From positions 13,097-77,096 of the forward strand of contig JACPZK010000011.1 in the NCBI GenBank assembly GCA_016195565.1: a stretch of DNA of 64,000 bases, written 5' to 3'. The translations under genes and the position numbers were made by a program. The notes beneath the pieces were generated by a model that saw nothing but the letters and a program-made list of their open reading frames with translations, was not told where the DNA came from and ran no database searches. The stretch is from Nitrospirota bacterium. GTDB lineage: Bacteria > Nitrospirota > Thermodesulfovibrionia > Thermodesulfovibrionales > UBA1546. Every line of letters starts with the position of its first letter. Within the stretch, counting starts at the first letter, position 1. Below, one piece after another: positions 3,825 to 47,761 of this stretch.

Positions 3825-5441
3825 ATGAGAGATTATCCGTCAGAATACAAAAATTTTTCCCTCTCAGCGCCTGAAAAGTTTTCTTTTCCGCTTGACGTCT
3901 TTGATAAATGGGAAAACAGGCCGGCGCTTTACTGGACAGACGGCGTTAATGACAGAACACTTTCATTCGCTGAATTAAAACTCCTCTCATCAAAAGGCGC
4001 AGGCGCTCTCAAAAACAGGAGAATTGTAAAGGGCGATAAAGTCCTTGTTATGCTCCCCGGCATTCCGGAGTGGTGGGAGATAATGCTCGCGCTTATGAGG
4101 ATAAACGCCATTCCGATACCTGCCACAACCCTGCTGACATCTAAGGACATAGAATACAGGCTTGCATCAGCAGACATAAAGGCAATCATCGCATCAGATG
4201 AAGATGCAGACAAAGTGGAAATCGCTGTAAATAAATCCTCTGCGCAACCCTCTCTTATCATTATTGGCGAAAGACAGAACTGGCATAACTACATAGAAGA
4301 AAGAAACAGCGCAGACGCCTTTGAAGGCGAGAGGGCGTTTTCATCAGAGCCTGCATTAATCTATTTCACATCAGGCACAACAGGCCCGCCGAAAATGGCG
4401 CTCCATACGCAGGCATCCTACCCTTTCGCACACCTGATAACAGGAAAGTACTGGCTTGACCTTAAGCCCGGCGATATCCACTGGAATCTCTCAGACCCCG
4501 GATGGGCAAAGGCGGCGTGGTCCAGCCTGTTTGGCCCGTGGCATATGGGAGCGGTAATATTTTCATTTTACAGAAAGGGGAAATTTGATCCTTCACTGAC
4601 AATGGAAATCCTGCAGAAATACCCTATAACAACATTCTGCGGGCCTCCGACAGCTTACAGGATAATTGTTAAAGAGATTCAATCCCGAAACTTATTCGGG
4701 ACAAAATTCAAGTTTAAATCTGCCCGGCATTTCGTTGCAGCCGGTGAGCCTCTTAACAAAGAGATAATTGGGATATGGAAAGAGAGAACAGGGCTGTATA
4801 TTTATGACGGTTACGGGCAGACAGAGACAGTGAATATTCTGGCAAATTTCAGATGTCTTCCAGTAAAGCCGGGTTCGATGGGAGTGCCGGTCCCTGGATT
4901 TTCTGTTGATATTATTGATGACAGCGGAAATCCGACTTCTTTAAATACCGAGGGCGATATAGCAATAAAAATAAAGCCTGAAAGGCCTGTAGGATTATTC
5001 AGGGAATATCTCGGAAACCCTGAGGCGACAGCTAAAACAGTAAGGGGCCAATGGTATATAACAGGCGACAGGGCCTATAAAGACAAAGACGGATACTTCT
5101 GGTTTGTCGGCAGGTCGGATGATGTTATACTCGCATCAGGATACAGGATAGGGCCTTTTGAGATAGAGAGCATCCTGATAGAACATCCTGCTGTAAAGGA
5201 ATCTGCGGTTGTTGCAAGCCCTGACAAAATAAGGGGCGAGGTTGTGAAAGCATTTATCGTCTTAACGCAGGGATTCAGCCCCTCGGATGCCCTCATAAAA
5301 GAACTACAGGAATTTGTGAAGAACCGCACAGCGCCGTATAAGTATCCGCGCAAGATTGAATTCGTTGAGGACCTGCCTAAAACCATAAGTGGAAAAATAA
5401 AGAGAAAAGAACTGAAAATGAAAGAATTCGGAAGGATTTAA
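3825..5441 (+). CDS. AMP-forming acyl-CoA synthetase/ligase
   Basis: YFTSGTTGPPK AMP-binding motif, DGYGQTE, C-terminal SGKIKRKEL. Confidence 0.85.
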   Translation: MRDYPSEYKNFSLSAPEKFSFPLDVFDKWENRPALYWTDGVNDRTLSFAELKLLSSKGAGALKNRRIVKGDKVLVMLPGIPEWWEIMLALMRINAIPIPATTLLTSKDIEYRLASADIKAIIASDEDADKVEIAVNKSSAQPSLIIIGERQNWHNYIEERNSADAFEGERAFSSEPALIYFTSGTTGPPKMALHTQASYPFAHLITGKYWLDLKPGDIHWNLSDPGWAKAAWSSLFGPWHMGAVIFSFYRKGKFDPSLTMEILQKYPITTFCGPPTAYRIIVKEIQSRNLFGTKFKFKSARHFVAAGEPLNKEIIGIWKERTGLYIYDGYGQTETVNILANFRCLPVKPGSMGVPVPGFSVDIIDDSGNPTSLNTEGDIAIKIKPERPVGLFREYLGNPEATAKTVRGQWYITGDRAYKDKDGYFWFVGRSDDVILASGYRIGPFEIESILIEHPAVKESAVVASPDKIRGEVVKAFIVLTQGFSPSDALIKELQEFVKNRTAPYKYPRKIEFVEDLPKTISGKIKRKELKMKEFGRI

Positions 5442-5483
5442 ACCCAAATCCCGATATAGGCTTTTCAATACCTTGTTTTGTCT

Positions 5484-5563
5484 GTCATTGCGAGTCCCGA
5501 TAAAATCGGGGCGTGGCAATCTTATCGTCAAAGGCGAGATTGCTTCGCTTCACTCGCAATGAC
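5484..5563. repeat. type-A palindromic REP-like element (GTCATTGCGAG ... GGCAATCT ... AGATTGCTTCG ... CTCGCAATGAC)
   Basis: terminal inverted repeats gtcattgcgag/ctcgcaatgac plus inner pair ggcaatct/agattgc; same family at 7 other loci. Confidence 0.85.
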
Positions 5564-5677
5564 AATTTTCTAAATCGGGATTTGACTTAAATTTTCCTCT
5601 TCCAAAATCATTGTAAATGTGATAGCATTAAAAATACTTTTCCTGCTTAATTCAAAACCCGGAGGGCTTTACATTTA

Positions 5678-7937: not shown

Positions 7938-8897
7938 GGATTTTATTCTGCTATTCAGGAACCATCTCCTTACAACGAATTTTTCTCCTTTGCCAGCGCC
8001 CTTATAATCATTGGCAGGCTGCATTATTTCGCTGACAGCCCTGACTGCGCTTAGCAGATTTTTGACATGCACCCCTCGTGAGATAGCGCTCTCAATCACC
8101 TCTCTGCTGTTAAGGACTATTAACACATGCCTTTTATATACAATAATATCCAGCGGCTTGAGCTTCTTTGCTATTTCATCAGGAGACAGTCCTTTTACAT
8201 CAACAGGCCTCCCGAAAGAAAAAAGGGAATCTGTATTGCGGGGGGTATAGCCTCCGGTTGCTTCATAAAGAAGCCCTGAACAATCAACGCCTTTCAAGGT
8301 CCACCTCTTCAATACGTCATCGGGCAGGGTCCCTGACGGTTTATAAAACTCAAGCATCTCAGGAATTCCTTTTGAATAGTTGCCTCCCCACACATATATA
8401 GCGCCATCAGCAGAAAGCAATCTCTTTATTATCGTGTTTTTGTCAGGAAGTTTCCTTCGGCGCTCCTGCGGTTTTTCAAGCCTCTTCTCAACAAACCGGC
8501 TGTCTATATAGTAGCCGCTCACTGCATGATGCGGATAATCCTTTGTGCTTACTTTGAGTATCTCACGGCGGCCCTTTATAATTTCCTCTTCTATAATAAA
8601 GACTGTATGCGGCATGGCAATAAATTCAACCTCTTCTATGAGATTTTTTGCGGTGAGCTTTAAGGTCCTTCCGTCACTGCCTCCGAATACGGAACTGAAA
8701 TCAGGCGTGTTCAAAACAGGAGTCGGCAGAACTGCAACAGCGTAGCGCAAATCTTTCTTTTGCAGGGGCTGCTTATCATCGACTTTTCCATCACACGCTG
8801 CAAATAAAAAAAGCATTACAATTAATAGGTCAACAATGCATTGGCATAAAAAGGACGGGGTATAGTATTTGAGCGGTTTTATTTTGCCGATATTCAT
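7896..8897 (-). CDS. NlpC/P60-family (C40) cell-wall hydrolase lipoprotein
   Basis: GVDCSGLLYEA catalytic-Cys motif; start moved to MNIGK.. giving a lipobox-like LFLFAAC; the longest ORF (to 8930) is probably over-extended. Confidence 0.6.
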   Translation of the reverse strand: MNIGKIKPLKYYTPSFLCQCIVDLLIVMLFLFAACDGKVDDKQPLQKKDLRYAVAVLPTPVLNTPDFSSVFGGSDGRTLKLTAKNLIEEVEFIAMPHTVFIIEEEIIKGRREILKVSTKDYPHHAVSGYYIDSRFVEKRLEKPQERRRKLPDKNTIIKRLLSADGAIYVWGGNYSKGIPEMLEFYKPSGTLPDDVLKRWTLKGVDCSGLLYEATGGYTPRNTDSLFSFGRPVDVKGLSPDEIAKKLKPLDIIVYKRHVLIVLNSREVIESAISRGVHVKNLLSAVRAVSEIMQPANDYKGAGKGEKFVVRRWFLNSRIKSLRRLFLGLQFNHV

Positions 8898-8999
8898 ATA
8901 GTAAATTATATCAGATAAATAAAGAGGCAAAATACCTCGGAGTCCCGATTTTATCGGGGCGAGAATGAGCGAAAGTGCTATACCCCGTCCTTTAAAACC

Positions 9000-9314
9000 T
9001 TATTCTGTAACCTCTTTCAGCCACTTCAGATAATCCTCCGACCCTTCAACAATCGGCAGGGCAATAATCTCCGGCACAGAGTAACTGTGCAGTTCCCTTA
9101 CTTTTTGAGAAAGGCTGTTAAAAAGTTTCTTCTGCGTTTTAACAATCATCAGGACTTCTGATTCATCCTCTACCTGGCCCTGCCAGCTATATATGGACCT
9201 TAAATTCCTTACTATATTTACACAAGCTGCAAGCCTTCCTTCAACAAGCGCCCTTGCGATATTTGCTGCCTCATCCTCATTAGAAACAGTTATGAAGACC
9301 ACTATGTTTTCCAT
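9000..9314 (-). CDS. cutA: divalent-cation tolerance protein CutA
   Basis: 104-aa CutA1-like translation (RLAACVNI..., SIYSWQG..., YSVPEI). Confidence 0.85.
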   Translation of the reverse strand: MENIVVFITVSNEDEAANIARALVEGRLAACVNIVRNLRSIYSWQGQVEDESEVLMIVKTQKKLFNSLSQKVRELHSYSVPEIIALPIVEGSEDYLKWLKEVTE

Positions 9315-9450
9315 GAATTCCCTTTCATTATCGGGGACAGTCCCTACGTTACTTAATCCGTGCCCCTTAAACTATAACATCTTAAGGCCCCATGCTTCCA
9401 ATAGTTAACGCCTTTAAACAAAAAAATCAAATTGAGACTGCTGAAAAGGT

Positions 9451-9504
9451 GTCATTGTGAGCGAAGGCCCCTCGCCTGTCATTGCGAGGCGCAGCCGAAG
9501 CAAG
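9451..9504. repeat. type-A repeat, partial (two tandem GTCATTG[T/C]GAG heads)
   Basis: gtcattgtgagcgaagg...gtcattgcgaggcgcagccgaagc. Confidence 0.7.
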
Positions 9505-9545
9505 CTTAAAGCAAGCTCGGGTATAGAATAAAAGCTCTTGCCCTT

Positions 9546-9574
9546 TTGTCAAATTTAACTGCTTGTGATAAAAT
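9546..9574 (+). promoter_or_regulatory. candidate sigma70 promoter of the minor-pilin operon
   Basis: TTGTCA (9546-9551), 17-nt spacer, TAAAAT (9569-9574) preceded by TGa; the ATG at 9584 lies only 9 nt downstream, so the transcript may be near-leaderless. Confidence 0.35.
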
Positions 9575-9583
9575 CTAAACATA

Positions 9584-10183
9584 ATGAAAGTGTCAGGTAT
9601 CGGATTATTAAAAAAACTTTTCACTTTTAACTTTTCACCTCCCCATCCCCCCCTTACTAAGGGGGGGCGAGGGGGGGGCAACAAAGGTTTCACCCTCATA
9701 GAAACAGTAATCGTAATGGTCATTGCAGTTATCCTCGCTGCCGTGGTTGCCGTCGGATGGAGTCCTTTTGACACAATAAAACTCTACAATGCAAAGCGAA
9801 AAGTCGCCGCTGACATAAGATACTCCCAGAAACTTGCAATCTCATCACAGCAGAGGTGCGGAGTTTTCAGGAACAGCGCAACAGCTTACACAGTATTTGA
9901 ACAAGGCAGCACCGCTGACCCTGCGCCAAGTTCAGGGGATGGATGCTCCACAGATGCATCAAATAATTTTGTTGTTGATTTTAGCGCAGGCAGATGCAGT
10001 GATTACAGCGGAGTTACAACCACATTCACCACGTCCGTAGCAAATACAATATACTTCAACTCTCTCGGCACGCCTGTTGACGCCGCAGGAACAGCGATTG
10101 CAGGCAACCAGACTGTAACAGTCACTTTTAATGGCAGCAGGGATATAACCATAGACGCAGGCACAGGAAGGGTGAGTTACTAA
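9584..10183 (+). CDS. prepilin-type minor pilin/pseudopilin (GspH/FimT-like) with 35-aa leader
   Basis: KG|FTLIETVIVMVIAVILA cleavage/methylation motif; the leader contains a heptamer array plus C7/G7/G8 tracts. Confidence 0.75.
   Translation: MKVSGIGLLKKLFTFNFSPPHPPLTKGGRGGGNKGFTLIETVIVMVIAVILAAVVAVGWSPFDTIKLYNAKRKVAADIRYSQKLAISSQQRCGVFRNSATAYTVFEQGSTADPAPSSGDGCSTDASNNFVVDFSAGRCSDYSGVTTTFTTSVANTIYFNSLGTPVDAAGTAIAGNQTVTVTFNGSRDITIDAGTGRVSY
9616..9638. repeat. heptamer array (ACTTTTC ACTTTTA ACTTTTC ..), right-arm type only
   Basis: three or more tandem ACT-anchored 7-mers inside the prepilin leader. Confidence 0.8.
9647..9667. repeat. GC hairpin C7-TTACTAA-G7 (followed by CGA-G8)
   Basis: perfect 7-bp C/G stem; homopolymer tracts at 9647-9653, 9661-9667, 9671-9678. 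Confidence 0.85.
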
Positions 10184-10836
10184 TGAAAAAGTTAAGAGTT
10201 ATGAGTTTAGAGTTAAAAGTTAAAGACATCCTCAGAAAACTTTTCACTTTTAACTTTTCACTTTTAACTTCTAAAAGAGGTTTTACCCTCATTGAGATAT
10301 TGCTGATAATCATAGTTGTTTCAATCGCAATACCCACACTTTTAATTATGGTGGGGCAGGAAGCTAAGTTCGGGGTAGATGCTGAGATAAGAGTCACCGC
10401 AACAAATGTTGCACAGCAATTGCTTGAAGAGATAAAGGCAAAATGCTTTGATGAGACTTCCGTGTCCGGAACAACATGCATACAGACCGCAGCCGCTTCA
10501 ACAACGCTCGGGCCTGAGGCAGGAGAGACAGCGTTATCCTTATACGACGATGTTGACGACTTCAATGATTTGGCGCCGGCAAGTTTAGGAACTACTCCGT
10601 GCACCGACACAGTTACTGTCAATGGTATTGGATTCACAAGGCAGGCTGTGGCCTGCTATGTGAATCCCGGCAATCTCAACAGATGCGTGGATACTGCCCC
10701 TGTGGCGGGAAGCTGCAATAGGACCATTGCAAGCGGAAGCCAAACAGATTACAAAAATATAACCGTAACAGTCACCGCGCCTTCTGACTCCGGGGGCGGC
10801 TCTGTCACGCTGACAACAGTGATGACGAATTACTAA
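10183..10836 (+). CDS. prepilin-type minor pilin (PilV-like) with long leader
   Basis: RG|FTLIEILLIIIVVSIA motif; start overlaps the upstream stop (TAATG). Confidence 0.75.
   Translation: MKKLRVMSLELKVKDILRKLFTFNFSLLTSKRGFTLIEILLIIIVVSIAIPTLLIMVGQEAKFGVDAEIRVTATNVAQQLLEEIKAKCFDETSVSGTTCIQTAAASTTLGPEAGETALSLYDDVDDFNDLAPASLGTTPCTDTVTVNGIGFTRQAVACYVNPGNLNRCVDTAPVAGSCNRTIASGSQTDYKNITVTVTAPSDSGGGSVTLTTVMTNY
10190..10273. repeat. paired heptamer array: 5 x AGTTNNN, 14-nt spacer, 5 x ACTTTTN
   Basis: units phased by hand at 10190-10224 and 10239-10273; the arms are reverse complements. Confidence 0.9.
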
Positions 10837-10837
10837 G

Positions 10838-11413
10838 ATGAGAGTTAAAAGTTTAAAGTTTAAAGTTAAAAGTTCTTTGAAGAAACTCTTCACTCCTCAC
10901 TCTTCACTCTTCACTTGTAAAAATGGCGTTACGCTTATTGAGCTTGTCATAGTAATGGTTCTGGCAGCCATTGTTGCCGTTGTTGTGGCTAATGCCCTGT
11001 CAACGGGGGTTAAGGGAAACCTTGTGACAGACTACCGCAAAGAGGCGCTTGATCAGGCAAGGGTTGCGATGGAGAGGATGAGGAGAGAAATAAGGAATCT
11101 GAATAATAGCGCGAGCGTAACCACAGGAATCGCAACACAATTCTGTTTTACGGACACGGAATCATTGCTGATAGATTACAGTTATTCAAGTCCTAATATC
11201 ACCCGCGACACTGGCAATTGTGCTGCCGGAGGCGGGGCAACGCTTTCAACGAGTATAACTGCGTTTTCATTCGTTTATCTCAGGGCAGATGGAGTTACTG
11301 TTGATTCACCATTCTCCGCTGCAACCACAAAGCTTATAAGAATAATTTTGACCGCTAACATCTCAGGCGAAAGCGTTCAGCTTCAGACAGAGGTCTGGCC
11401 GCGGAATTTGTGA
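10838..11413 (+). CDS. prepilin-type minor pilin (PilW-like) with long leader
   Basis: NG|VTLIELVIVMVLAAIVA motif; EALDQARVAMERMRREIR region typical of PilW-like proteins. Confidence 0.7.
   Translation: MRVKSLKFKVKSSLKKLFTPHSSLFTCKNGVTLIELVIVMVLAAIVAVVVANALSTGVKGNLVTDYRKEALDQARVAMERMRREIRNLNNSASVTTGIATQFCFTDTESLLIDYSYSSPNITRDTGNCAAGGGATLSTSITAFSFVYLRADGVTVDSPFSAATTKLIRIILTANISGESVQLQTEVWPRNL
10843..10919. repeat. paired heptamer array: 5 x AGTTNNN, 7-nt spacer, 5 x ACTYYTC
   Basis: units phased at 10843-10877 and 10885-10919. Confidence 0.9.
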
Positions 11414-11425
11414 TATAATTTTTAT

Positions 11426-12445
11426 ATGAAACATAAACATTCAGGCAATTCCGGCATGTCCATCATTGCAACTGTCATGATTATGATGATACTTGCGCTT
11501 TTCGCCGCTATCGGAGTTTCGCTTGTAACAACCGGAAGCAATGTTGCGGTTCAGGAAGAGCGCGGGCTTGAGGCGTTTTACATTGCAGACGGAGGGCTTC
11601 AATACGCAATAAAGACATATAACTTTCCAAATTTTGTTGTTACTCCCAAGCCTCTCGGAGAAGGCTCATTTACCACAACAGTGCCTACGCTTTTAGCAGC
11701 TATAGATAATGCTGTGTTAACAATCACTGTGTCTTCAACAGACGGGTTTATTCTTAACCCCGGAGACGCAACCAGTTATTGGATAATGCTGTGTGATAAT
11801 AACGGCGCTGACAACCCGACTGCGACGCCGAATCCGAATCTTGACGCGGCAACGGCAAACTGTGAAAAAATAAGCTTTACAGGCAAAACAGCAACAACAT
11901 TTATAGGAGGCACAAGGGGAAGGGACAGCAGCACCGCAGACACCCATCAACTGGGCGCAGTTGTTCTTGGCTATTCGTGGGACCCGGCAAAAACAACGAC
12001 GATATCAACCCGTGATTTCACCACGGGTAATCGATGCACCAGTATTGCCACAACTTTATGTGTCGCCTCAACAGCGAATTTTGCAACCTCAGGCTTTGTC
12101 AGAATAGATGACAACAACCAAAACAACAGAGAGGATGTTTTTTATAACGGCATTGGCATTGGCGCAGCCCAATGCGGCGCGGGGTGCGCGGCGTGTCTGG
12201 GTTATACTAATCCTTTTCCCGCGGCGGGCAACTGCATAAGAAGGGCGTATGATGATAATAACAACACCACTGGAACCATCAATCACGACAGTTCCGACGC
12301 CGGCGGCGCCTACGGGGTGGTGGGCGCTCCAATCTATCAGTCTGAAATCTCTGTTCTTGCCACATCAACGGGCGTAGTTCCTGGTGCCATACTTACAGGC
12401 AACATACAGAGGGTTGTGCAGGGAAAAATAATGCCGCTGCAGTGA
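11426..12445 (+). CDS. PilX-like minor pilin / pilus-associated protein
   Basis: N-terminal hydrophobic helix GMSIIATVMIMMILALFAAIGV without FTLIE; position after the PilW-like gene. Confidence 0.55.
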   Translation: MKHKHSGNSGMSIIATVMIMMILALFAAIGVSLVTTGSNVAVQEERGLEAFYIADGGLQYAIKTYNFPNFVVTPKPLGEGSFTTTVPTLLAAIDNAVLTITVSSTDGFILNPGDATSYWIMLCDNNGADNPTATPNPNLDAATANCEKISFTGKTATTFIGGTRGRDSSTADTHQLGAVVLGYSWDPAKTTTISTRDFTTGNRCTSIATTLCVASTANFATSGFVRIDDNNQNNREDVFYNGIGIGAAQCGAGCAACLGYTNPFPAAGNCIRRAYDDNNNTTGTINHDSSDAGGAYGVVGAPIYQSEISVLATSTGVVPGAILTGNIQRVVQGKIMPLQ

Positions 12446-12462
12446 GGGATGGGAAATGGCCT

Positions 12463-12560
12463 GTCATTGCAAGGGCAGAATTTCTCGCTGTCATTGCGAG
12501 CACCTGAAAGGTGCGTGGCAATCTCATTGCAAAAGACGAGATTGTTTCGCTCGCAATAAC
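12463..12560. repeat. type-A palindromic element (with an extra head copy)
   Basis: gtcattgcaag..gtcattgcgag..tggcaatct..gagattgtttcgctcgcaataac. Confidence 0.8.
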
Positions 12561-12569
12561 CGGTAAAAT

Positions 12570-12857
12570 ATGGACAGACAATACTATCTATACATTATGA
12601 CAAATCAGAAAAATACAGTAATTTATACAGGTGTCACTAACAATTTAAAAAGAAGGGCTTATGAACATAAGGAGAAACTGGTTGAGGGATTTACAAAAAA
12701 ATATAACATTACAAAATTAGTTTATTACGAGATATTTAGTAATATAGAGTATGCTATTTTAAGAGAGAAACAGATTAAAGGCGGACCAAGAGCAAAGAAG
12801 ATTGCATTGATTAATAAAATAAATCATCAATGGAAAGACTTGTATGAAGACTTGTAA
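12570..12857 (+). CDS. small GIY-YIG nuclease-family protein
   Basis: YYLYIMTN...VIYTGVTNNLKRRAYEHK motif, 95 aa. Confidence 0.8.
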   Translation: MDRQYYLYIMTNQKNTVIYTGVTNNLKRRAYEHKEKLVEGFTKKYNITKLVYYEIFSNIEYAILREKQIKGGPRAKKIALINKINHQWKDLYEDL

Positions 12858-12879
12858 GGTTTGTCCCGAAAACAAGCAA

Positions 12880-12963
12880 GGGATTGCCCCGAACGGACAA
12901 GATTGCTTCGGGACTTCATCCCTCGCAATGACAGATAGGCGGAGTGTCTCTCCTCACAATGAC
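12880..12963. repeat. type-A element, right half with duplicated tail
   Basis: gggattgcc..agattgcttcggg..ctcgcaatgac..ctcacaatgac. Confidence 0.75.
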
Positions 12964-13005
12964 AAATGTATTGCTATCCAAAATTCCGTAAGGAACCGAA
13001 AACAT

Positions 13006-14697
13006 TTGCTCATAAGTTTACTGATAGCTGTCTCTCTTGTGTTTTTACTCCCTGACGGCGCCTCTGCCGGGCAAATTCCATTCACAGAACTTCAGATGCC
13101 TTCAGGACAGGACGGCACAACAGGACAAGGCGATTATGTAAGCTCAACCGGAGGCCTTAACACGTATCTCTCTTATTTTATTGAAGTCCCGCCGAGTTCA
13201 ACCACTCTGGTTGTTGACCTGTATGACGCAGATGTAGGGAATTTAGTCCCAAGCGATATAGGCGACAGGGTCCGTACTGCATATAATACATCCGTCACTT
13301 ACACCCTTTTAACACCTGCCGGGGCAACACAGGTTACAAAAACATGCGATTCCCTTCTTAATCTATGCATTCTTGAGAACGGCACATGGACAAACTTGGC
13401 TACAGTTGTTAATCCGGCTGCAGGGCACTGGGAGCTTCGGGTTGACATGGGCGCGGGTGACGACCTGAACGGTTTTGCGATAAGGGCGCATGACGGCGAC
13501 AAAACATCACGCGGAACAGAATACAATATATATGCGGACTCGTTTATTGACATTGGCGTCCATACCGCGGGCGGAAGCGGCGTCTATACAAATATATTTC
13601 CATTTATCACCTCAGGCTGTAACTTTTCAACCAGAGATTGGGATATGGACGGAGCAGGATCAATTTCAGTGACAAGCAGAACCGGCGCATTCACGCAGAC
13701 TAATTCTGCGGTTTCAGGCAGTACTGTATGGTTAACTACAACTGTGCCTGAAACAGGCTCCGGATGGACTACGGATGATTCAGCGGGTGATTACGGCATC
13801 TGGAGTTCCAATATGACAGTAAGTTTAGGCGCTAATTATACAACTATTTACCTTGGAACCTATAATTCAGGGGCAACTCCGCCAACAACACAGCCTCAGG
13901 CAAACACCTTTCGTATGTATTTTCCGACTGACGCCCTTTTAGGAGTAAATACCGCGCTCTCAGCCGGGAAGCTGATAGACGCCACAGCAAACTTTTCGGA
14001 TCCTGCCTCTCCGGTAATTATAGGTGATATTGTAAAAAATATATCACTGGGCACCGAAACAACGGTAACGTCAATAGACAGCGCCACACAGCTTGGACTT
14101 GCGGTTGATATTTTTACGGCCACACCGCAGAATTACTCTGTCAGCGGTTCAGCAACCGCCGCGCCTGTGAAGCCGTATCTTAGCCAGATATTACCAGACA
14201 TCCCGACGGTTATTACAGGCAAGACTACCCAGGTCAATATTCAGGTGACGATAACCAACCCGACTCCTTATAATATTACATTCTCTGCAGCAAACCTTGT
14301 TACCGCGAATGTGCCCGGCCCTACATGTCCGGCGGCTACAAATTCAGCCTGTTATGTGGGAAATTCCGCTTCCGTAACTCAGGGGGCTGTTAATTCCCAG
14401 CCCGCTGACGGGGCAACAGGGAACATAACATGGAACCCCGGAACGCTTTTAGCCGGCGCCTCTGCTTCTCTCACTTACACGGTAAAGGCAGCTCCGAATG
14501 CCGACGGCACTCGCATCCCTGTCACCGGCACCCCGGCGTCCAACGGAACCACAGCAAAATATGTTGATGAGACCGGCAATACCACACAGGCGCGCGCTAC
14601 ATATACCTACGGCCCTTTGTGCGAGCTTGCCGTAACATCAGTGTCGGGAGCCACAGGCGCAAAACGCTTTCTGAGATGGCGCGAGGTTATTCAGTAG
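13006..14697 (+). CDS. large secreted S/T/G/N-rich protein at the PilY1/tip-adhesin position
   Basis: proposed TTG start (AGGA 11 nt upstream) gives the signal peptide LLISLLIAVSLVFLLPDGASA; the longest ORF (from 12844) reads through repeat DNA and overlaps the GIY-YIG gene. Confidence 0.5.
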   Translation: MLISLLIAVSLVFLLPDGASAGQIPFTELQMPSGQDGTTGQGDYVSSTGGLNTYLSYFIEVPPSSTTLVVDLYDADVGNLVPSDIGDRVRTAYNTSVTYTLLTPAGATQVTKTCDSLLNLCILENGTWTNLATVVNPAAGHWELRVDMGAGDDLNGFAIRAHDGDKTSRGTEYNIYADSFIDIGVHTAGGSGVYTNIFPFITSGCNFSTRDWDMDGAGSISVTSRTGAFTQTNSAVSGSTVWLTTTVPETGSGWTTDDSAGDYGIWSSNMTVSLGANYTTIYLGTYNSGATPPTTQPQANTFRMYFPTDALLGVNTALSAGKLIDATANFSDPASPVIIGDIVKNISLGTETTVTSIDSATQLGLAVDIFTATPQNYSVSGSATAAPVKPYLSQILPDIPTVITGKTTQVNIQVTITNPTPYNITFSAANLVTANVPGPTCPAATNSACYVGNSASVTQGAVNSQPADGATGNITWNPGTLLAGASASLTYTVKAAPNADGTRIPVTGTPASNGTTAKYVDETGNTTQARATYTYGPLCELAVTSVSGATGAKRFLRWREVIQ

Positions 14698-14741
14698 AAG
14701 GAATCAGCGTACTTCAAAGTAATTTGTGTTATAATTTTTGT

Positions 14742-15155
14742 GTGAAAACAGATTTCTTAAAACAAATAAAAGATTATTTTAAGGACAGAGAAGAGGTTTC
14801 CGCTGTTTATCTGTTTGGCTCCACGGCAACCGGAAGTGAAACCGCTTCAAGTGATATTGACATTGCTATATTGCTAAAGCGCGGGGTTAATCCATACAAG
14901 CCGGACATCCAGTTAAAAATAATGTCAGACCTTGAATTGCTTTTAAAGAAACGCATTGATGTTGTTCTGCTGAACAGCGCAGACCCTATACTTGAACACC
15001 AGATACGCAAACATAGCAAAGTCCTCATTGATAAAAATCCGAAAATCAGAATGACTTATGAGTTAGAGGCAAGGAAAAAATACTTTGATTTTATATACAG
15101 GCACAACAACTATATGAAAATCCTGAAAAACAGGATTTTGCAGGTTTCACGATGA
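14742..15155 (+). CDS. mntA: MNT-type nucleotidyltransferase antitoxin
   Basis: LFGSTATGSETASSDIDIAIL (GSxxxG..DxD) motif; GTG 14742 or TTG 14724 start; TGtTATAAT extended -10 at 14727-14735; 4-nt overlap with hepT. Confidence 0.75.
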   Translation: MKTDFLKQIKDYFKDREEVSAVYLFGSTATGSETASSDIDIAILLKRGVNPYKPDIQLKIMSDLELLLKKRIDVVLLNSADPILEHQIRKHSKVLIDKNPKIRMTYELEARKKYFDFIYRHNNYMKILKNRILQVSR

Positions 15156-15601
15156 CAGATAAAGAAATTACAGACAGGCTGATTTCTCTGATTTCGGAAT
15201 ATACGGCTGATTTAAAAGAGGCCGCAGGGTCATACAGGAAATTTTCAGATTTCAGGGCTGACAAAAAAACCCAGAGATACGCTGAACGGACACTCCAGAT
15301 AGGCATTGAGGCGTGTCTTGACCTTGCCAATCATATTATTTCAGCAGAGGGTTTCCGGGAGCCTTCAAGCAATGCCGATGCTTTCTATGTGCTTTGTGAA
15401 AATAAGATAATTCCGACAGCCTTCTTCAATAAACTGAAAGACATGGCAAGTTTCAGAAACCTGATGGTCCATAATTACGCAAAGGTGGACATTGCAAAGG
15501 TTTACGGAATTCTGAAAAGGCATCTAAGAGATTTTGATATATATCTCGCCTATATCGTCAAGTTTCTTGAAAGAAACAAAACAGCAAAGAAAAAGAAGTA
15601 A
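15152..15601 (+). CDS. hepT: HepT (DUF86/HEPN) toxin
   Basis: RNLMVHNY matches the Rx4HxY HEPN motif; paired with MNT. Confidence 0.8.
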   Translation: MTDKEITDRLISLISEYTADLKEAAGSYRKFSDFRADKKTQRYAERTLQIGIEACLDLANHIISAEGFREPSSNADAFYVLCENKIIPTAFFNKLKDMASFRNLMVHNYAKVDIAKVYGILKRHLRDFDIYLAYIVKFLERNKTAKKKK

Positions 15602-15681
15602 AAGTAACTGTCACATGCTCCTCCAGAATTACAGCCACAGGCCAAAAACGCTTTCTGAGATGGCGCGAGGTCTTTCAGTAA
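15601..15681 (+). pseudogene. orphan 3' gene fragment (..VTVTCSSRITATGQKRFLRWREVFQ*) paralogous to the adhesin C-terminus
   Basis: no start codon in frame (stop at 15568-15570); compare ..LAVTSVSGATGAKRFLRWREVIQ* at 14629-14697. Confidence 0.45.
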
Positions 15682-15746
15682 GGCATTCTCATTTGACATG
15701 AAACAAACATGCCTCAAAAAGACATAAAGGGCAATGACACTGCAAT

Positions 15747-15811
15747 GTCATTCCCGCAAAGGCGGGAATCCAGAACAAATACACTGGATTCCGTGTCAAG
15801 CACGGAATGAC
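15747..15811. repeat. type-B palindromic element (GTCATTCC-hairpin-AATCCAG ... CTGGATTCC-hairpin-GGAATGAC)
   Basis: two hairpins attcccgc/gcgggaat and attccgtg/cacggaat joined by ccag..ctgg. Confidence 0.85.
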
Positions 15812-15892
15812 AGAATATAAAAATGTCATCTTACTTATGAACTCCTTATTGATACCTTTACTCTGTTAGAAATCTTTTATTTCTAACAGAGT

Positions 15893-17026
15893 TTATCCTG
15901 CATTGACAAATCTGCCGCCTTTTATAAGCGCTGTCCTGATGCCGCCTTTATGAATCAATGTCACGGTGGGCCTGAAGAACACAAAGTCCTGATGAAACGG
16001 CGTGCTGACATTTCCTCCGAATGAACTGTTGTCACCAAGCGCAATATGAATCGTGCCGAGGATTTTTTCCGATTCAAGAATATTGTCAGGCCTTTTCGCC
16101 ATATCATTGGTGCCTATGCCGAGTTCCGCTATATTTGCATTTTCAATGCGCTCTGACAGTTTTGCTCTCAGATAACCGGCGTATTCCTCATCACCTGATA
16201 CCTCTTTAACAAATCCGTTTTTTACTGTTAATGTCACAGGTGATTTTAATTGCCTCGTAGGCGCAAACTCAAGGACCAGCCGACCTTCTGCCGTGCCTTC
16301 CAACGGCGCAAGATATACCTCGCCTGCCGGAAGATTTCCGAATGAACCCGGCGCTGTGAGAAGCCCGGTGTCTGATTCTGCCTTCCTGCCTTTTTTTGAA
16401 AATGAAATAGAGGTGCCGTTAGGCGTCTCTATCTCTACAGCCTCAGCCTTATCTACAATTCTCGCAATGCCCCTGGTCCTTCTGTCAATCAGTCTCCAGT
16501 TTACGTTCATTGCGCCCTCAAGCATCGCCGCATCAAACAACGGCATGCTGGCATAACGTGTTTTGCATATCCTTGTCAGAAGGTCCCTGAACCTCGTATG
16601 GCTTGTAGAATAATTTGAAAGCGCAATGACAGCATTCACAGCATACTTTTTATGGCGGGCTATAATTTCTTCTGCCCTTCTCATATCCGAATCATCAGCT
16701 TTTTTATTTATGAGGCGGGCTGACAGCTTTTGCGCCTTCAGCTCATTGAATGCCTTTTCGCCGAATGCCATTGCCCATAGTTCTTTAGGAGGCTCTGCGC
16801 CGTGGCTGCCTGTGGCAGGATATTCATGATAAAGAATCTTTTTGCAGAAACCTTTCCCTGTCTCAGCGATAAGGATGGCTATGTCGCGCAGTCTTTCCCT
16901 TCTGCATCTGTCTGAATCCTCTATGAACTCTTCATTAAATGGCACATCTGTGAATACAAGAACACTCTCTGATTTTTTGACTCTTAGGTTAACGCTGAAT
17001 ATGTTCCTTAGCGTCTTTGTCGTCAA
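15893..17026 (-). CDS. aminopeptidase, probably M29 (AmpS/AmpT-like) family
   Basis: AELGIGTN and GTIHIALGDN..GGNVSTPFHQD regions resemble M29 motifs as I recall them. Confidence 0.5.
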   Translation of the reverse strand: MTTKTLRNIFSVNLRVKKSESVLVFTDVPFNEEFIEDSDRCRRERLRDIAILIAETGKGFCKKILYHEYPATGSHGAEPPKELWAMAFGEKAFNELKAQKLSARLINKKADDSDMRRAEEIIARHKKYAVNAVIALSNYSTSHTRFRDLLTRICKTRYASMPLFDAAMLEGAMNVNWRLIDRRTRGIARIVDKAEAVEIETPNGTSISFSKKGRKAESDTGLLTAPGSFGNLPAGEVYLAPLEGTAEGRLVLEFAPTRQLKSPVTLTVKNGFVKEVSGDEEYAGYLRAKLSERIENANIAELGIGTNDMAKRPDNILESEKILGTIHIALGDNSSFGGNVSTPFHQDFVFFRPTVTLIHKGGIRTALIKGGRFVNAG

Positions 17027-18450
17027 ATCTCTTCTGCTTTAATCCGCGGGGTTATGAATATGAGAAGTTCTGTTTTATCCTTTGTTTTAGTCTCTTTCTT
17101 GAACAGCCATCCAATCAGAGGAATCCTGGAAAGTAATGGTACTCCAGCCTCTCCCTCTGTTTCTGTCTCTGTATAGATGCCGCCGATAACTATTGTCTCG
17201 CCGTTTTTAACAATGAGATTGGTCTGCGTCTCACGTGTGTTCTTAGGCGGACTTCCCTGAACACTGCGGCTAAAGTCAAATACATCCCTGGATGTCAAAA
17301 TCTTCAGAGATATCTGGTCGTCATTTATCACCCTTGGAGTAACTTTTAACTGCAACAGAGCTTCTTTTTCCGTAACACTCGTAGTAGTAGTCGTTCCAGA
17401 CGTACTCGATGTAGGAATAAGTATGCCTGTGCCGCTCTTGATATAAGCCTCCTGATTGTCAAGAACCATCACCTTCGGGCTTGACAGCGTCCTTGCACTC
17501 CCCTGAGTTTCAAGGGCTGATATCTGGAGGTCAAGTATCGCATTTTTTGTAAGAATACCTATGCCTATTGCTCCGCCGGAACCAAACCCAACCGCAGCCG
17601 GCAGATTTACATTCAAAGCGCTCCCTCCAAAACCAGCGCCTCCTGTTAATGGGATTGTCCCTGTAGTTGTCGTGCCGGGACCTGTAGTGCTTGATGGCAG
17701 CACCCCTACAGTGCCGGTAGTACCTGTTGTGCCGCCACCGGATGTGCCGCCACCAAATATATATGCATCACCGTTCCGGTACATCGTGCCCCACTGTATG
17801 CCCAATTCCCTGCTTGCATTTGTGCTGACCTCAACAATCTTTGCCTCTATCATAATCTGCTTTGTCTTTACATCCACCTGTTTCAAAAGCTGCGTAACCC
17901 TCTCTATTGCAGACGGAATATCCCTTATAACTACCATATTGCTCTTCAGGTCAGAGGCAATGGAACCCCTCTTGCTTAAGACCTTTGTAATAATTCCCTC
18001 AATGTCTTTAGCATTAGCGTATTTAACGGTTGCCGTATAGGTCGCAAGGTCTTCGTCTGCTCCCGAAGAAATCACTCTCACAACATTCCCATCCTTTATG
18101 TATGCAAAGCCCTTGCCCTTTAATATAGAATCAATAGCATCCCATAGAGGGACATTCCTGAGGCTGACTGTCACCTTGCCCGTAACTTTTTCGTCAATAA
18201 TTATGTTTATGCCGTGCTCCTGTCCCAGCGCCCTCAAAACATCGCTCAGTTCAACGTCCCTTAATTCCATTGAGATAGGAGCGCCTTTTTCATTGGCGTA
18301 AGAAGGTGAGAAGTAAGAAGTAAACAGCAAAATAAGAGCAGTAGCGCAGAAGCGCAGAAGCGCAGCAGTAAAAGATTCCTTCACTAAAGACTGCTGCTCT
18401 ATTGCTCTATTGCTCTGTTGCACCCTTGACCCCTCTTTCTGCATTCTCAT
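17023..18450 (-). CDS. pilQ: type IV pilus secretin PilQ
   Basis: secretin C-domain (VPLLSRIPLIGWLFK, ELLIFITPRI); G/T-rich linker; an alternative GTG start at 18384 would give the signal peptide MKESFTAALLRFCATALILLFTSYFSPSYA. Confidence 0.85.
   Translation of the reverse strand: MRMQKEGSRVQQSNRAIEQQSLVKESFTAALLRFCATALILLFTSYFSPSYANEKGAPISMELRDVELSDVLRALGQEHGINIIIDEKVTGKVTVSLRNVPLWDAIDSILKGKGFAYIKDGNVVRVISSGADEDLATYTATVKYANAKDIEGIITKVLSKRGSIASDLKSNMVVIRDIPSAIERVTQLLKQVDVKTKQIMIEAKIVEVSTNASRELGIQWGTMYRNGDAYIFGGGTSGGGTTGTTGTVGVLPSSTTGPGTTTTGTIPLTGGAGFGGSALNVNLPAAVGFGSGGAIGIGILTKNAILDLQISALETQGSARTLSSPKVMVLDNQEAYIKSGTGILIPTSSTSGTTTTTSVTEKEALLQLKVTPRVINDDQISLKILTSRDVFDFSRSVQGSPPKNTRETQTNLIVKNGETIVIGGIYTETETEGEAGVPLLSRIPLIGWLFKKETKTKDKTELLIFITPRIKAEEI
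18306..18422. repeat. triple array: 4x7 (GTGAGAA-type), 4x8 (GCAGNAGC), spacer, 4x8 (CTNNTGCT)
   Basis: units phased by hand; covers the first ~48 codons of pilQ. Confidence 0.85.
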
Positions 18451-47693: not shown

Positions 47694-47761
47694 GTCATTC
47701 CGTGCTTGACACGGAATCCAGACATGGAAAGATACTGGATTCCCGCTTTCGCGGGAATGAC
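47694..47761. repeat. type-B palindromic element
   Basis: gtcattccgtgcttgacacggaatccag..ctggattcccgctttcgcgggaatgac. Confidence 0.85.

Follow-up and report, generated by a model that had tools for sequence, protein, structure and literature searches.

An MntA/HepT toxin-antitoxin cassette without a recombinase gene, probably inserted at a conserved pilus-operon gene end in Nitrospirota

Why should a complete toxin-antitoxin operon lie between two near-identical copies of the last codons of a pilus-operon gene? The question is raised by a 64,000-nucleotide (nt) stretch from a Nitrospirota bacterium (assembly GCA_016195565.1, contig JACPZK010000011.1, positions 13,097 to 77,096 of the forward strand), referred to below as the window, in which an mntA-hepT pair is found downstream of a gene for a surface protein ('adhesin'). 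The initial annotation of this DNA read the arrangement as a mobile cassette at a gene end. That interpretation is supported by the analysis described here, with the corrections that the host C-terminus is retained, that no homology of 23 residues and no likeness to polymorphic toxins exist, and that the cassette belongs to a widespread array system. We consider it quite probable that the window element is a recombinase-less cassette inserted at a conserved gene-end site. The cassette (window 14698-15681, 984 nt) consists of a promoter, mntA-hepT, a short tail and a copy of the last ~48 nt of the target gene, and contains no recombinase gene. Its parts and borders are given below, with L numbers denoting comparison loci and P numbers proteins.

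13006-14697, forward strand: pilus-operon surface ('adhesin') gene, the target gene; 563 amino acids (aa) as publicly annotated (P0001), ending GATGAKRFLRWREVIQ-TAG
14649-14697, forward strand: left gene-end copy; the last 15 codons plus TAG and 2 nt leftward, with the core GGCGCGAGGTTATTCAGTAG at 14678-14697
14698-14741, forward strand: cassette 5' leader; conserved extended -10 TGTGTTATAAT at 14725-14735, homologous to the leaders in L109, L005, L100 and L104
14742-15155, forward strand: mntA, nucleotidyltransferase antitoxin; GTG start (ATG at the same position in L109), Pfam Polbeta 5e-24
15152-15601, forward strand: hepT, RNase toxin; Pfam HepT-like 3.5e-32, NCBIfam HepT_toxin 120.5 bits (cut-off 60)
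15602-15632, forward strand: cassette 3' tail; aligns with the sequence after hepT in L109 and L005, not adhesin-derived
15633-15681, forward strand: right (orphan) gene-end copy; reads ...ATGQKRFLRWREVFQ-TAA, start codon absent, core at 15662-15681
15682-15741, forward strand: native downstream DNA (context on the side of an M29 peptidase); 86-91% identical to the DNA after the terminal site in L016, L060/L067, L072 and L127

The two gene-end copies form a direct repeat that is identical at 44 of 49 positions and that a repeat search delimited as 14649-14696 and 15633-15680 (48 nt, 92%). The identity of 42/47 given previously for 14651-14697 against 15635-15681 is correct, with five mismatches (C, A, C, T and A in the downstream copy), and the repeat extends 2 nt further left. 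Within it, an exact 27-nt core (14661-14687 and 15645-15671) occurs only twice in the 64 kb, and none of 100 shuffles gave two matches. A similarity of about 23 residues at the protein level had also been proposed; the stretch on which it depended (15602-15632, read as 'VTVTCSSRIT') is instead homologous to the DNA that follows hepT in L005 and L109, and is thus cassette tail and not adhesin, so that the apparent extension is not homology. The second copy has, as described, no in-frame ATG, GTG or TTG, but it begins 31 nt past the hepT stop and not directly after it. Nor does it rebuild the host C-terminus, which has been preserved instead: the left copy differs from the native end in L004 at two positions only (GCGC/GCGT and TAG/TAA). 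In the right copy there are a Q and an F, which it shares with other lineages. The left copy being native-like, the host gene appears to have kept its own C-terminus, and the orphan copy is most likely the cassette-borne one.

Do relatives possess the same locus without the cassette? Empty sites, for which the initial annotation had recommended a search, were found in L001 and L004, where the adhesin stop is followed by no cassette, and in L067/L060; L083 is unoccupied too. In L001 the adhesin stop is directly joined to native DNA leading to an EamA gene, and in L004, which holds the closest ortholog in an assembly with frameshifts in several genes, the adhesin ends GAKRFLRWREVIQ-TAA and is followed by the L001-type native DNA. 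DNA homology of the window to these two loci ends exactly at 14696. The loci L067/L060 are syntenic with the window both upstream (CutA, pilins, PilX-like gene) and downstream (89% over window 15892-17608), and encode a different tip protein of 657 aa, likewise ending RWREVFQ-stop. The stop of the L067 gene joins the sequence that follows the right copy of the window (L067 5623-5706 aligns to window 15658-15741), the right copy itself being homologous, from 15658 on, to the gene end and downstream DNA of this empty site. Synteny and direct stop junction thus indicate that the window differs from L067/L060 by a 984-nt insertion at the stop codon plus an element at 15742-15845 that resembles a miniature inverted-repeat transposable element (MITE). 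Two copies without the toxin-antitoxin genes, the pattern of an ancient tandem duplication unrelated to the cassette, were not seen in relatives of this locus.

If the cassette moves, it should also be met in other surroundings. Loci L005, L008 and L011 were reached through close HepT homologs (76-92% aa identity), and L109, L100 and L104 through pattern scans. In L109, an independent assembly from another groundwater site, the cassette is 94.2% identical over window 14678-15680, with an identical copy spacing of 984 nt. The two loci are homologous from the left core up to the final stop of the right copy, and both flanks differ, those of L109 being the end of a DUF1640-type cassette upstream and EamA-type DNA downstream; the junction between cassette tail and adhesin-type fragment is the same in both loci. 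Since L109 shares only the block between the site copies, the unit 'leader - mntA - hepT - tail - 48-nt adhesin end' was exchanged between contexts as a block, and at the level of sequence the comparison shows a cassette that travels or is exchanged with its breakpoints at the two site copies. An assembly artefact or chance repeat might be suspected because the window comes from a metagenome-assembled genome (MAG) and repeats can mis-join contigs, but the shuffles described above, the same architecture and spacing in an independent assembly, and the analogous arrays in many independent assemblies make this explanation scarcely credible.

How widespread is the arrangement? One genome per species and the Joint Genome Institute (JGI) metagenomes were scanned with the core pattern YGGCGCGAGGTN(W/D)TTHRGTAR, followed by relaxed matching. 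Further cassettes flanked by duplicated gene ends, which had been suggested as a check, proved abundant and came from many independent assemblies. About 17 distinct loci of Nitrospirae type or from metagenomes carry two to five direct copies of a '...WREVFQ-stop' gene end, 0.4-1.2 kb apart, amounting to 60 unique sites; the cassettes lying between copies are of 27 distinct kinds and measure 0.38-1.24 kb. The hotspot gene end is TGGCGCGAGGTnTTTCAGTA-stop, which codes for WREVFQ-stop, and up to four cassettes stand in a row with a site copy after each (five copies each in L005 and L046; three each in L016, L119, L120, L127 and L130). In L005 the five copies reproduce the end of a 938-aa surface protein (...IKWREVFR-stop) and bound VapBC-like cassettes, an MNT-HepT cassette 80% identical to that of the window, a PilX-like gene and a small DUF1640 gene, with native downstream DNA after the last copy. 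Cassette genes can run with or against the site (L016, L008, L037, L046), and one cassette end is found with different neighbours in different arrays, which indicates that cassettes are shuffled. Between them, the loci compared show that cassettes insert at the stop codon, are exchanged as blocks delimited by the copies and accumulate in tandem.

It could be argued that no mobile insertion took place, and that each orphan is the leftover 3' end of a deleted, replaced or paralogous tip-protein gene, with the toxin-antitoxin pair merely lying between two such genes. Several operon proteins do end in WREVFQ-stop (the adhesin, 830-940-aa proteins and PilX-like fusions), tandem genes with that ending are known in L047/L113, and a PilX-like gene stands inside the L005 array. 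The remnants, however, are always 20-48 nt long and never longer pseudogene pieces, with up to five in a row, and in L109 the same remnant follows the same cassette, with the same left junction, in a different context. We thus regard leftover gene ends as an improbable origin of the copies.

The cargo of the window cassette is a standard MntA/HepT type VII toxin-antitoxin by its predicted domains, motifs, gene order and overlap, with nothing unusual about it; the novelty is the docking of the pair and not the cargo. MntA scores 91 bits against NCBIfam MntA_antitoxin (cut-off 60) and retains an intact LFGSTATG...DIDIAIL motif of the GSx(n)DxD form, and the Rx4HxY motif of HepT is intact as RNLMVHNY. 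The mntA stop and the hepT start overlap in an ATGA at 15152-15155, forming a bicistronic operon with the antitoxin first. In the leader, TGTGTTATAATTTTTG is invariant across the homologous cassettes (L109, L005, L100, L104), and the extended -10 reported earlier (TGtTATAAT, 14727-14735) is present and invariant in all of them; a simple -35/-10 scanner missed it because there is no good -35. Among the arrays nearly all cassettes are type II/VII toxin-antitoxin pairs, and a Pfam run on 33 cassette proteins gave the following families.

Polbeta/NTP_transf_2: 7 cassette proteins
HepT-like: 3 cassette proteins
HepT-like_2: 3 cassette proteins
NTase_sub_bind: 1 cassette protein
PIN: 3 cassette proteins
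Uma2: 2 cassette proteins
CCDC90-like: 2 cassette proteins
PemK, ParE, Phd, VapB, UPF0175, DUF3368, DUF2283 and DUF2281: 1 cassette protein each

By what route could a cassette with no recombinase of its own enter such a site? In the scheme that we propose, the cassette would circularise by recombination between its two flanking copies, giving a circle junction ...CCAGAATTAC-AGCCACAGG...TTTCAGTA(G/A)-AAGGAATCAGCG and leaving an empty site in which the adhesin end is directly joined to GGCATTCTCATTTGAC. The circle would re-insert by a single reciprocal crossover between the cassette site and the identical core at a resident gene end, whereupon the gene would keep a complete C-terminus and one non-coding site copy would be displaced downstream. 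The crossover would most likely be the work of a sequence-specific recombinase whose gene lies in another part of the genome and whose target is the site of ~21-35 nt; after insertion, the toxin-antitoxin pair would act against loss of the cassette. In its full form, that is, cassette insertion together with a site-specific enzyme acting in trans, we hold this scheme tentatively, as a plausible statement that stops short of being probable.

The anatomy of the site bears directly on this choice. In an alignment of the 60 sites the left arm is heterogeneous, with weak conservation over ~12 nt, and leads into a 21-nt core TGGCGCGAGGTnTTTCAGTAG of strong conservation, after which similarity is sharply lost. 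The drop falls 1-2 nt past the stop codon, at the point from which cassettes of more than 15 unrelated families extend, the boundaries reading ...TTTCAGTAG followed by RRGG.... Left arms of adjacent copies have a similarity of 0.47 over 12 nt, against 0.41 for those of different arrays, and thus show no general excess similarity; the type of stop codon (TAG or TAA) was inconsistent as a marker of internal versus terminal copies. Starts at the stop codon in so many families, together with heterogeneous left arms, fit a short defined site better than recombination over long homology, and a trans-encoded site-specific enzyme is favoured on two grounds: what most copies have in common is limited to ~21 nt, and every cassette family has its start at one and the same nucleotide.

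A number of observations weigh against such an enzyme and against cassette mobility as proposed. By inspection the 60-site consensus has no dyad symmetry, which is unusual for sites of tyrosine or serine recombinases, and when the last 90 nt plus 10 nt were folded at 42 copies from 16 arrays in search of an attC-like structure, z-scores were around 0 and no shared hairpin emerged. A regex search found no tyrosine-recombinase motifs in any open reading frame (ORF) of the window and 129 loci, and no integrase stood among the 25 of 100 Pfam families listed for the 52 window ORFs, a result that is uninformative on the presence of an integrase. Neither the ~17 arrays nor the 4-10 kb flanking them contained a cognate integrase, though a helper might be encoded in another part of the genome. 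A scan of viral contigs for the site gave 0 matches. Degenerate or lost copies occur, as after hepT in L005 and in L124. Furthermore, the sites were collected by their core pattern, and conservation of the orphan cores, being partly ascertainment, is therefore not usable as evidence of selection. No excision product of the cassette was seen. Lastly, flanking copies match over 30-48 nt, well past the core, in the window (48 nt), L130, L008 and L037, which is the pattern expected from RecA homology-dependent integration or from target duplication.

Short-homology host recombination is the main rival. It would dispense with a dedicated enzyme: a circular or transformed cassette carrying a gene-end fragment would integrate by a Campbell-type single crossover, and arrays would grow by unequal crossover. 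Besides matching the resident allele over the lengths just given, the fragment co-varies with the local adhesin allele, the right copy of the window reading FLR like its own adhesin and the L109 copy FIR like the Hainich adhesins. That no recombinase was found and that the site has no symmetry and no fold points the same way, and a locus in a type IV pilus operon, with DprA encoded in the window, makes natural transformation plausible. In contrast, most array copies share only the ~21-nt core between unrelated left arms, below the usual length for efficient RecA exchange, and host recombination leaves unexplained why many unrelated cassette families start at the stop codon. We see it as a genuine possibility, albeit a doubtful one.

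The same near-identical flanking copies in the single-cassette loci (window, L008, L037, L130), and the sharp right border of the site, could also be envisaged as a target-site duplication made by an integrase cutting the strands 20-50 nt apart, as Cas1 and casposases duplicate a repeat. The duplicated length, however, is not constant, adjacent copies in multi-cassette arrays have unrelated left arms, the L109 cassette has differing left arms on its two sides, and no such enzyme is seen beside the arrays, save for an unrelated clustered regularly interspaced short palindromic repeat (CRISPR) locus in L102. A staggered-cut duplication is thus very unlikely, and both it and the leftover-gene model fit less well than host recombination.

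Returning to the target gene, its ORF is a 100% match to P0001, a hypothetical protein of a Nitrospirae MAG, and occupies fifth place in a minor-pilin operon, the genes ahead of it being three of prepilin type and one that is PilX-like. Its orthologs P0002-P0005 are 54-77% identical and all end ...KRF(L/I)RWREV(F/I)Q. Between the PilX-like and adhesin genes an insert (12446-12998) carries a GIY-YIG nuclease gene (12570-12857) and flanking inverted repeats (12461-12480 and 12915-12934), and is not present in L001, L004 and L053. The insert replaces the ATG start of the adhesin, orthologs reading ATGAAAAAACAT where the window has AGGAACCGAAAACAT, and the adhesin may in consequence be N-terminally altered or poorly exported. 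On the other side of the cassette, the type-B repeat noted at 15747 is real, with a second copy at 47735-47761 on the reverse strand. It is the MITE-like palindromic element at 15742-15845 (GTCATTCCCGC...GGAATGAC) inserted into the native downstream DNA, and it is missing from this spot in L016, L067 and L072. An Rfam search of 12300-16100 returned only a sub-threshold small RNA match (FtrB), on this element.

Members of the MNT-HepT family are also conserved at a second home, immediately behind the third minor-pilin gene and ahead of the PilX-like gene (L008 4588-5453, L011 4588-5462, L132, L133, L134). The cassettes there have no WREVFQ copy, and flanking repeats were not found in L008 or L011, so that a repeat-bounded insertion was ruled out for this home; nor were any found around the homologous cassette in L004. 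Past the terminal site, a different HepT(/MNT) pair lies on the opposite strand between a small lipoprotein gene and EamA in L004 (9828-10858) and L046 (reverse strand, 4861-5675), and looks like a resident of the EamA-type context. The sole pair of site copies without genes belongs to a different locus, where the copies are 36 nt apart (L063 505-580 and L076 1786-1861), and is either an empty cassette or the footprint of a cassette loss.

Some loci depart from the usual setting. A full PilX-like gene (L005 5491-6927, 468 aa, ending RVWMEVF-stop) lies inside the L005 array between a degenerate and a good site, a hint that such sites may serve for the exchange of pilus genes as well. In L102, which represents the locus also seen in L037 and L017/L019 (Nitrospirae CG1_02_44_142), a PemK cassette lies between two site copies (4694-5438) with no pilus gene near, ~3 kb from a locus encoding Cas1 and a Cas9-like protein of 1042 aa (8187-12195); site copies thus occur outside the pilus operon also. 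Ahead of the array in L046 (reverse strand, 8-1880) stand an IS3-family transposase and, named by eye, a DUF433/DUF5615-like pair; of the large surface-protein gene only the last ~50 nt are left, showing that the target gene can be lost while the array persists. Soil metagenomes (L031, L034, L039, L040, L043-L045, L047, L051, L055, L057 and others) contain non-Nitrospirae genes ending ...TFGTGTIN......(T/L)WREVFQ-stop with the same codons, and no cassette arrays were seen at those genes. From this shared ending, WREVFQ seems to be a C-terminal motif, widespread and uncharacterised, of a protein family that may be associated with pili.

What, then, might the arrays amount to? In the broadest reading, Thermodesulfovibrio-like Nitrospirae would possess a gene-capture system not described before, whose ~21-35-nt site doubles as the WREVFQ-stop codons of interchangeable pilus tip-protein genes, and in which a trans-acting enzyme stacks promoter-bearing toxin-antitoxin or defence cassettes, and possibly tip-protein genes too, in parallel with integrons though with an unrelated site and enzyme. 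We offer this as speculation that is more likely wrong than right. Type IV pilus tip proteins are common phage receptors, and a bank of toxin-antitoxin and abortive-infection-type genes would here stand beside them; the association is suggestive only. If the mechanism were confirmed, integrons and dif modules would be joined by a new means of stockpiling small accessory genes in bacteria without an element-borne recombinase, and this in a phylum that is uncultured and widespread in the environment. A protein gene, it seems, can lend its final codons as a reusable docking site and still stay intact, and the 21-nt core is a ready search key for further arrays and for read-level tests of excision.

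How does the arrangement compare with known systems? The likeness that the initial annotation drew to the orphan C-termini of polymorphic toxin loci fails because no toxin domain is attached to the orphan copy, which is only the last 16 codons plus stop, its neighbours being complete toxin-antitoxin operons. A variable-region/template-region pair of a diversity-generating retroelement was rejected, as no reverse transcriptase lies between or beside the copies and the mismatches are not confined to template adenines. Integron cassette arrays and CALINs, which are attC clusters without an integrase (cf. PMC4889954, PMC13108822), are alike in lining up small cassettes (0.4-1.2 kb) that have no recombinase and terminate in a copy of the recombination site, in their strong enrichment for toxin-antitoxin pairs with their own promoters, in the shuffling between arrays and in that the integrase need not adjoin. 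In contrast to them, the Nitrospirae site copies ~21-35 nt from the end of a protein-coding gene and has neither an attC hairpin nor a GTTRRRY core, and docking takes place at the stop codon of a structural gene and not at an attI beside intI. Integron cassettes have one orientation and are mostly promoterless, whereas the Nitrospirae cassettes occur in both orientations and the MNT-HepT cassette carries a conserved extended -10. The integron attC itself, an imperfect palindrome of 55-140 nt, was rejected as a candidate for the site, as cassette 3' ends have no conserved hairpin and no GTTRRRY or RYYYAAC boundaries.

Elements that target gene 3' ends, such as ICESt1/CIME at fda, SGI1 at trmE and the tycheposons, keep the gene intact, and their integrase-less derivatives accrete in tandem; they measure from kb to tens of kb and rely on a tyrosine integrase that can be identified in one or more of the array members. 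The Nitrospirae arrays share with ICESt1/CIME (cf. PMC7563491) and with the tycheposons at tRNA ends (bioRxiv 10.1101/2020.12.28.424599) the direct repeats that copy the 3' end of the target gene, the empty sites in relatives and the tandem arrays with partial gene ends. They differ in that every unit is a cassette of one or two genes and in that no integrase was found in any array locus. Acinetobacter dif (pdif) modules and other Xer-exploiting elements (PMC6449649, PMC13141974) are likewise small, often toxin-antitoxin units without a recombinase of their own, bounded by short sites and shuffled from replicon to replicon, and pdif modules are presumed to use a housekeeping recombinase in trans. 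Unlike pdif, whose 28-nt dif-like sites (11-6-11, with partly palindromic arms) alternate in orientation on plasmids, the Nitrospirae sites are all direct, have no dyad and are chromosomal at a gene end. A Xer/dif-like site was rejected, the 60-site consensus showing, on inspection, no dyad and no ...ATAA-N6-TTAT... and all array copies being direct. In the literature we found the integron, dif-module and tycheposon analogues and no description of the present arrangement, though coverage was incomplete and this is not proof of novelty. Site-bounded, recombinase-less cassettes are known as a kind, and the gene-end-targeting, integron-like form at the end of a pilus gene would be new among them.

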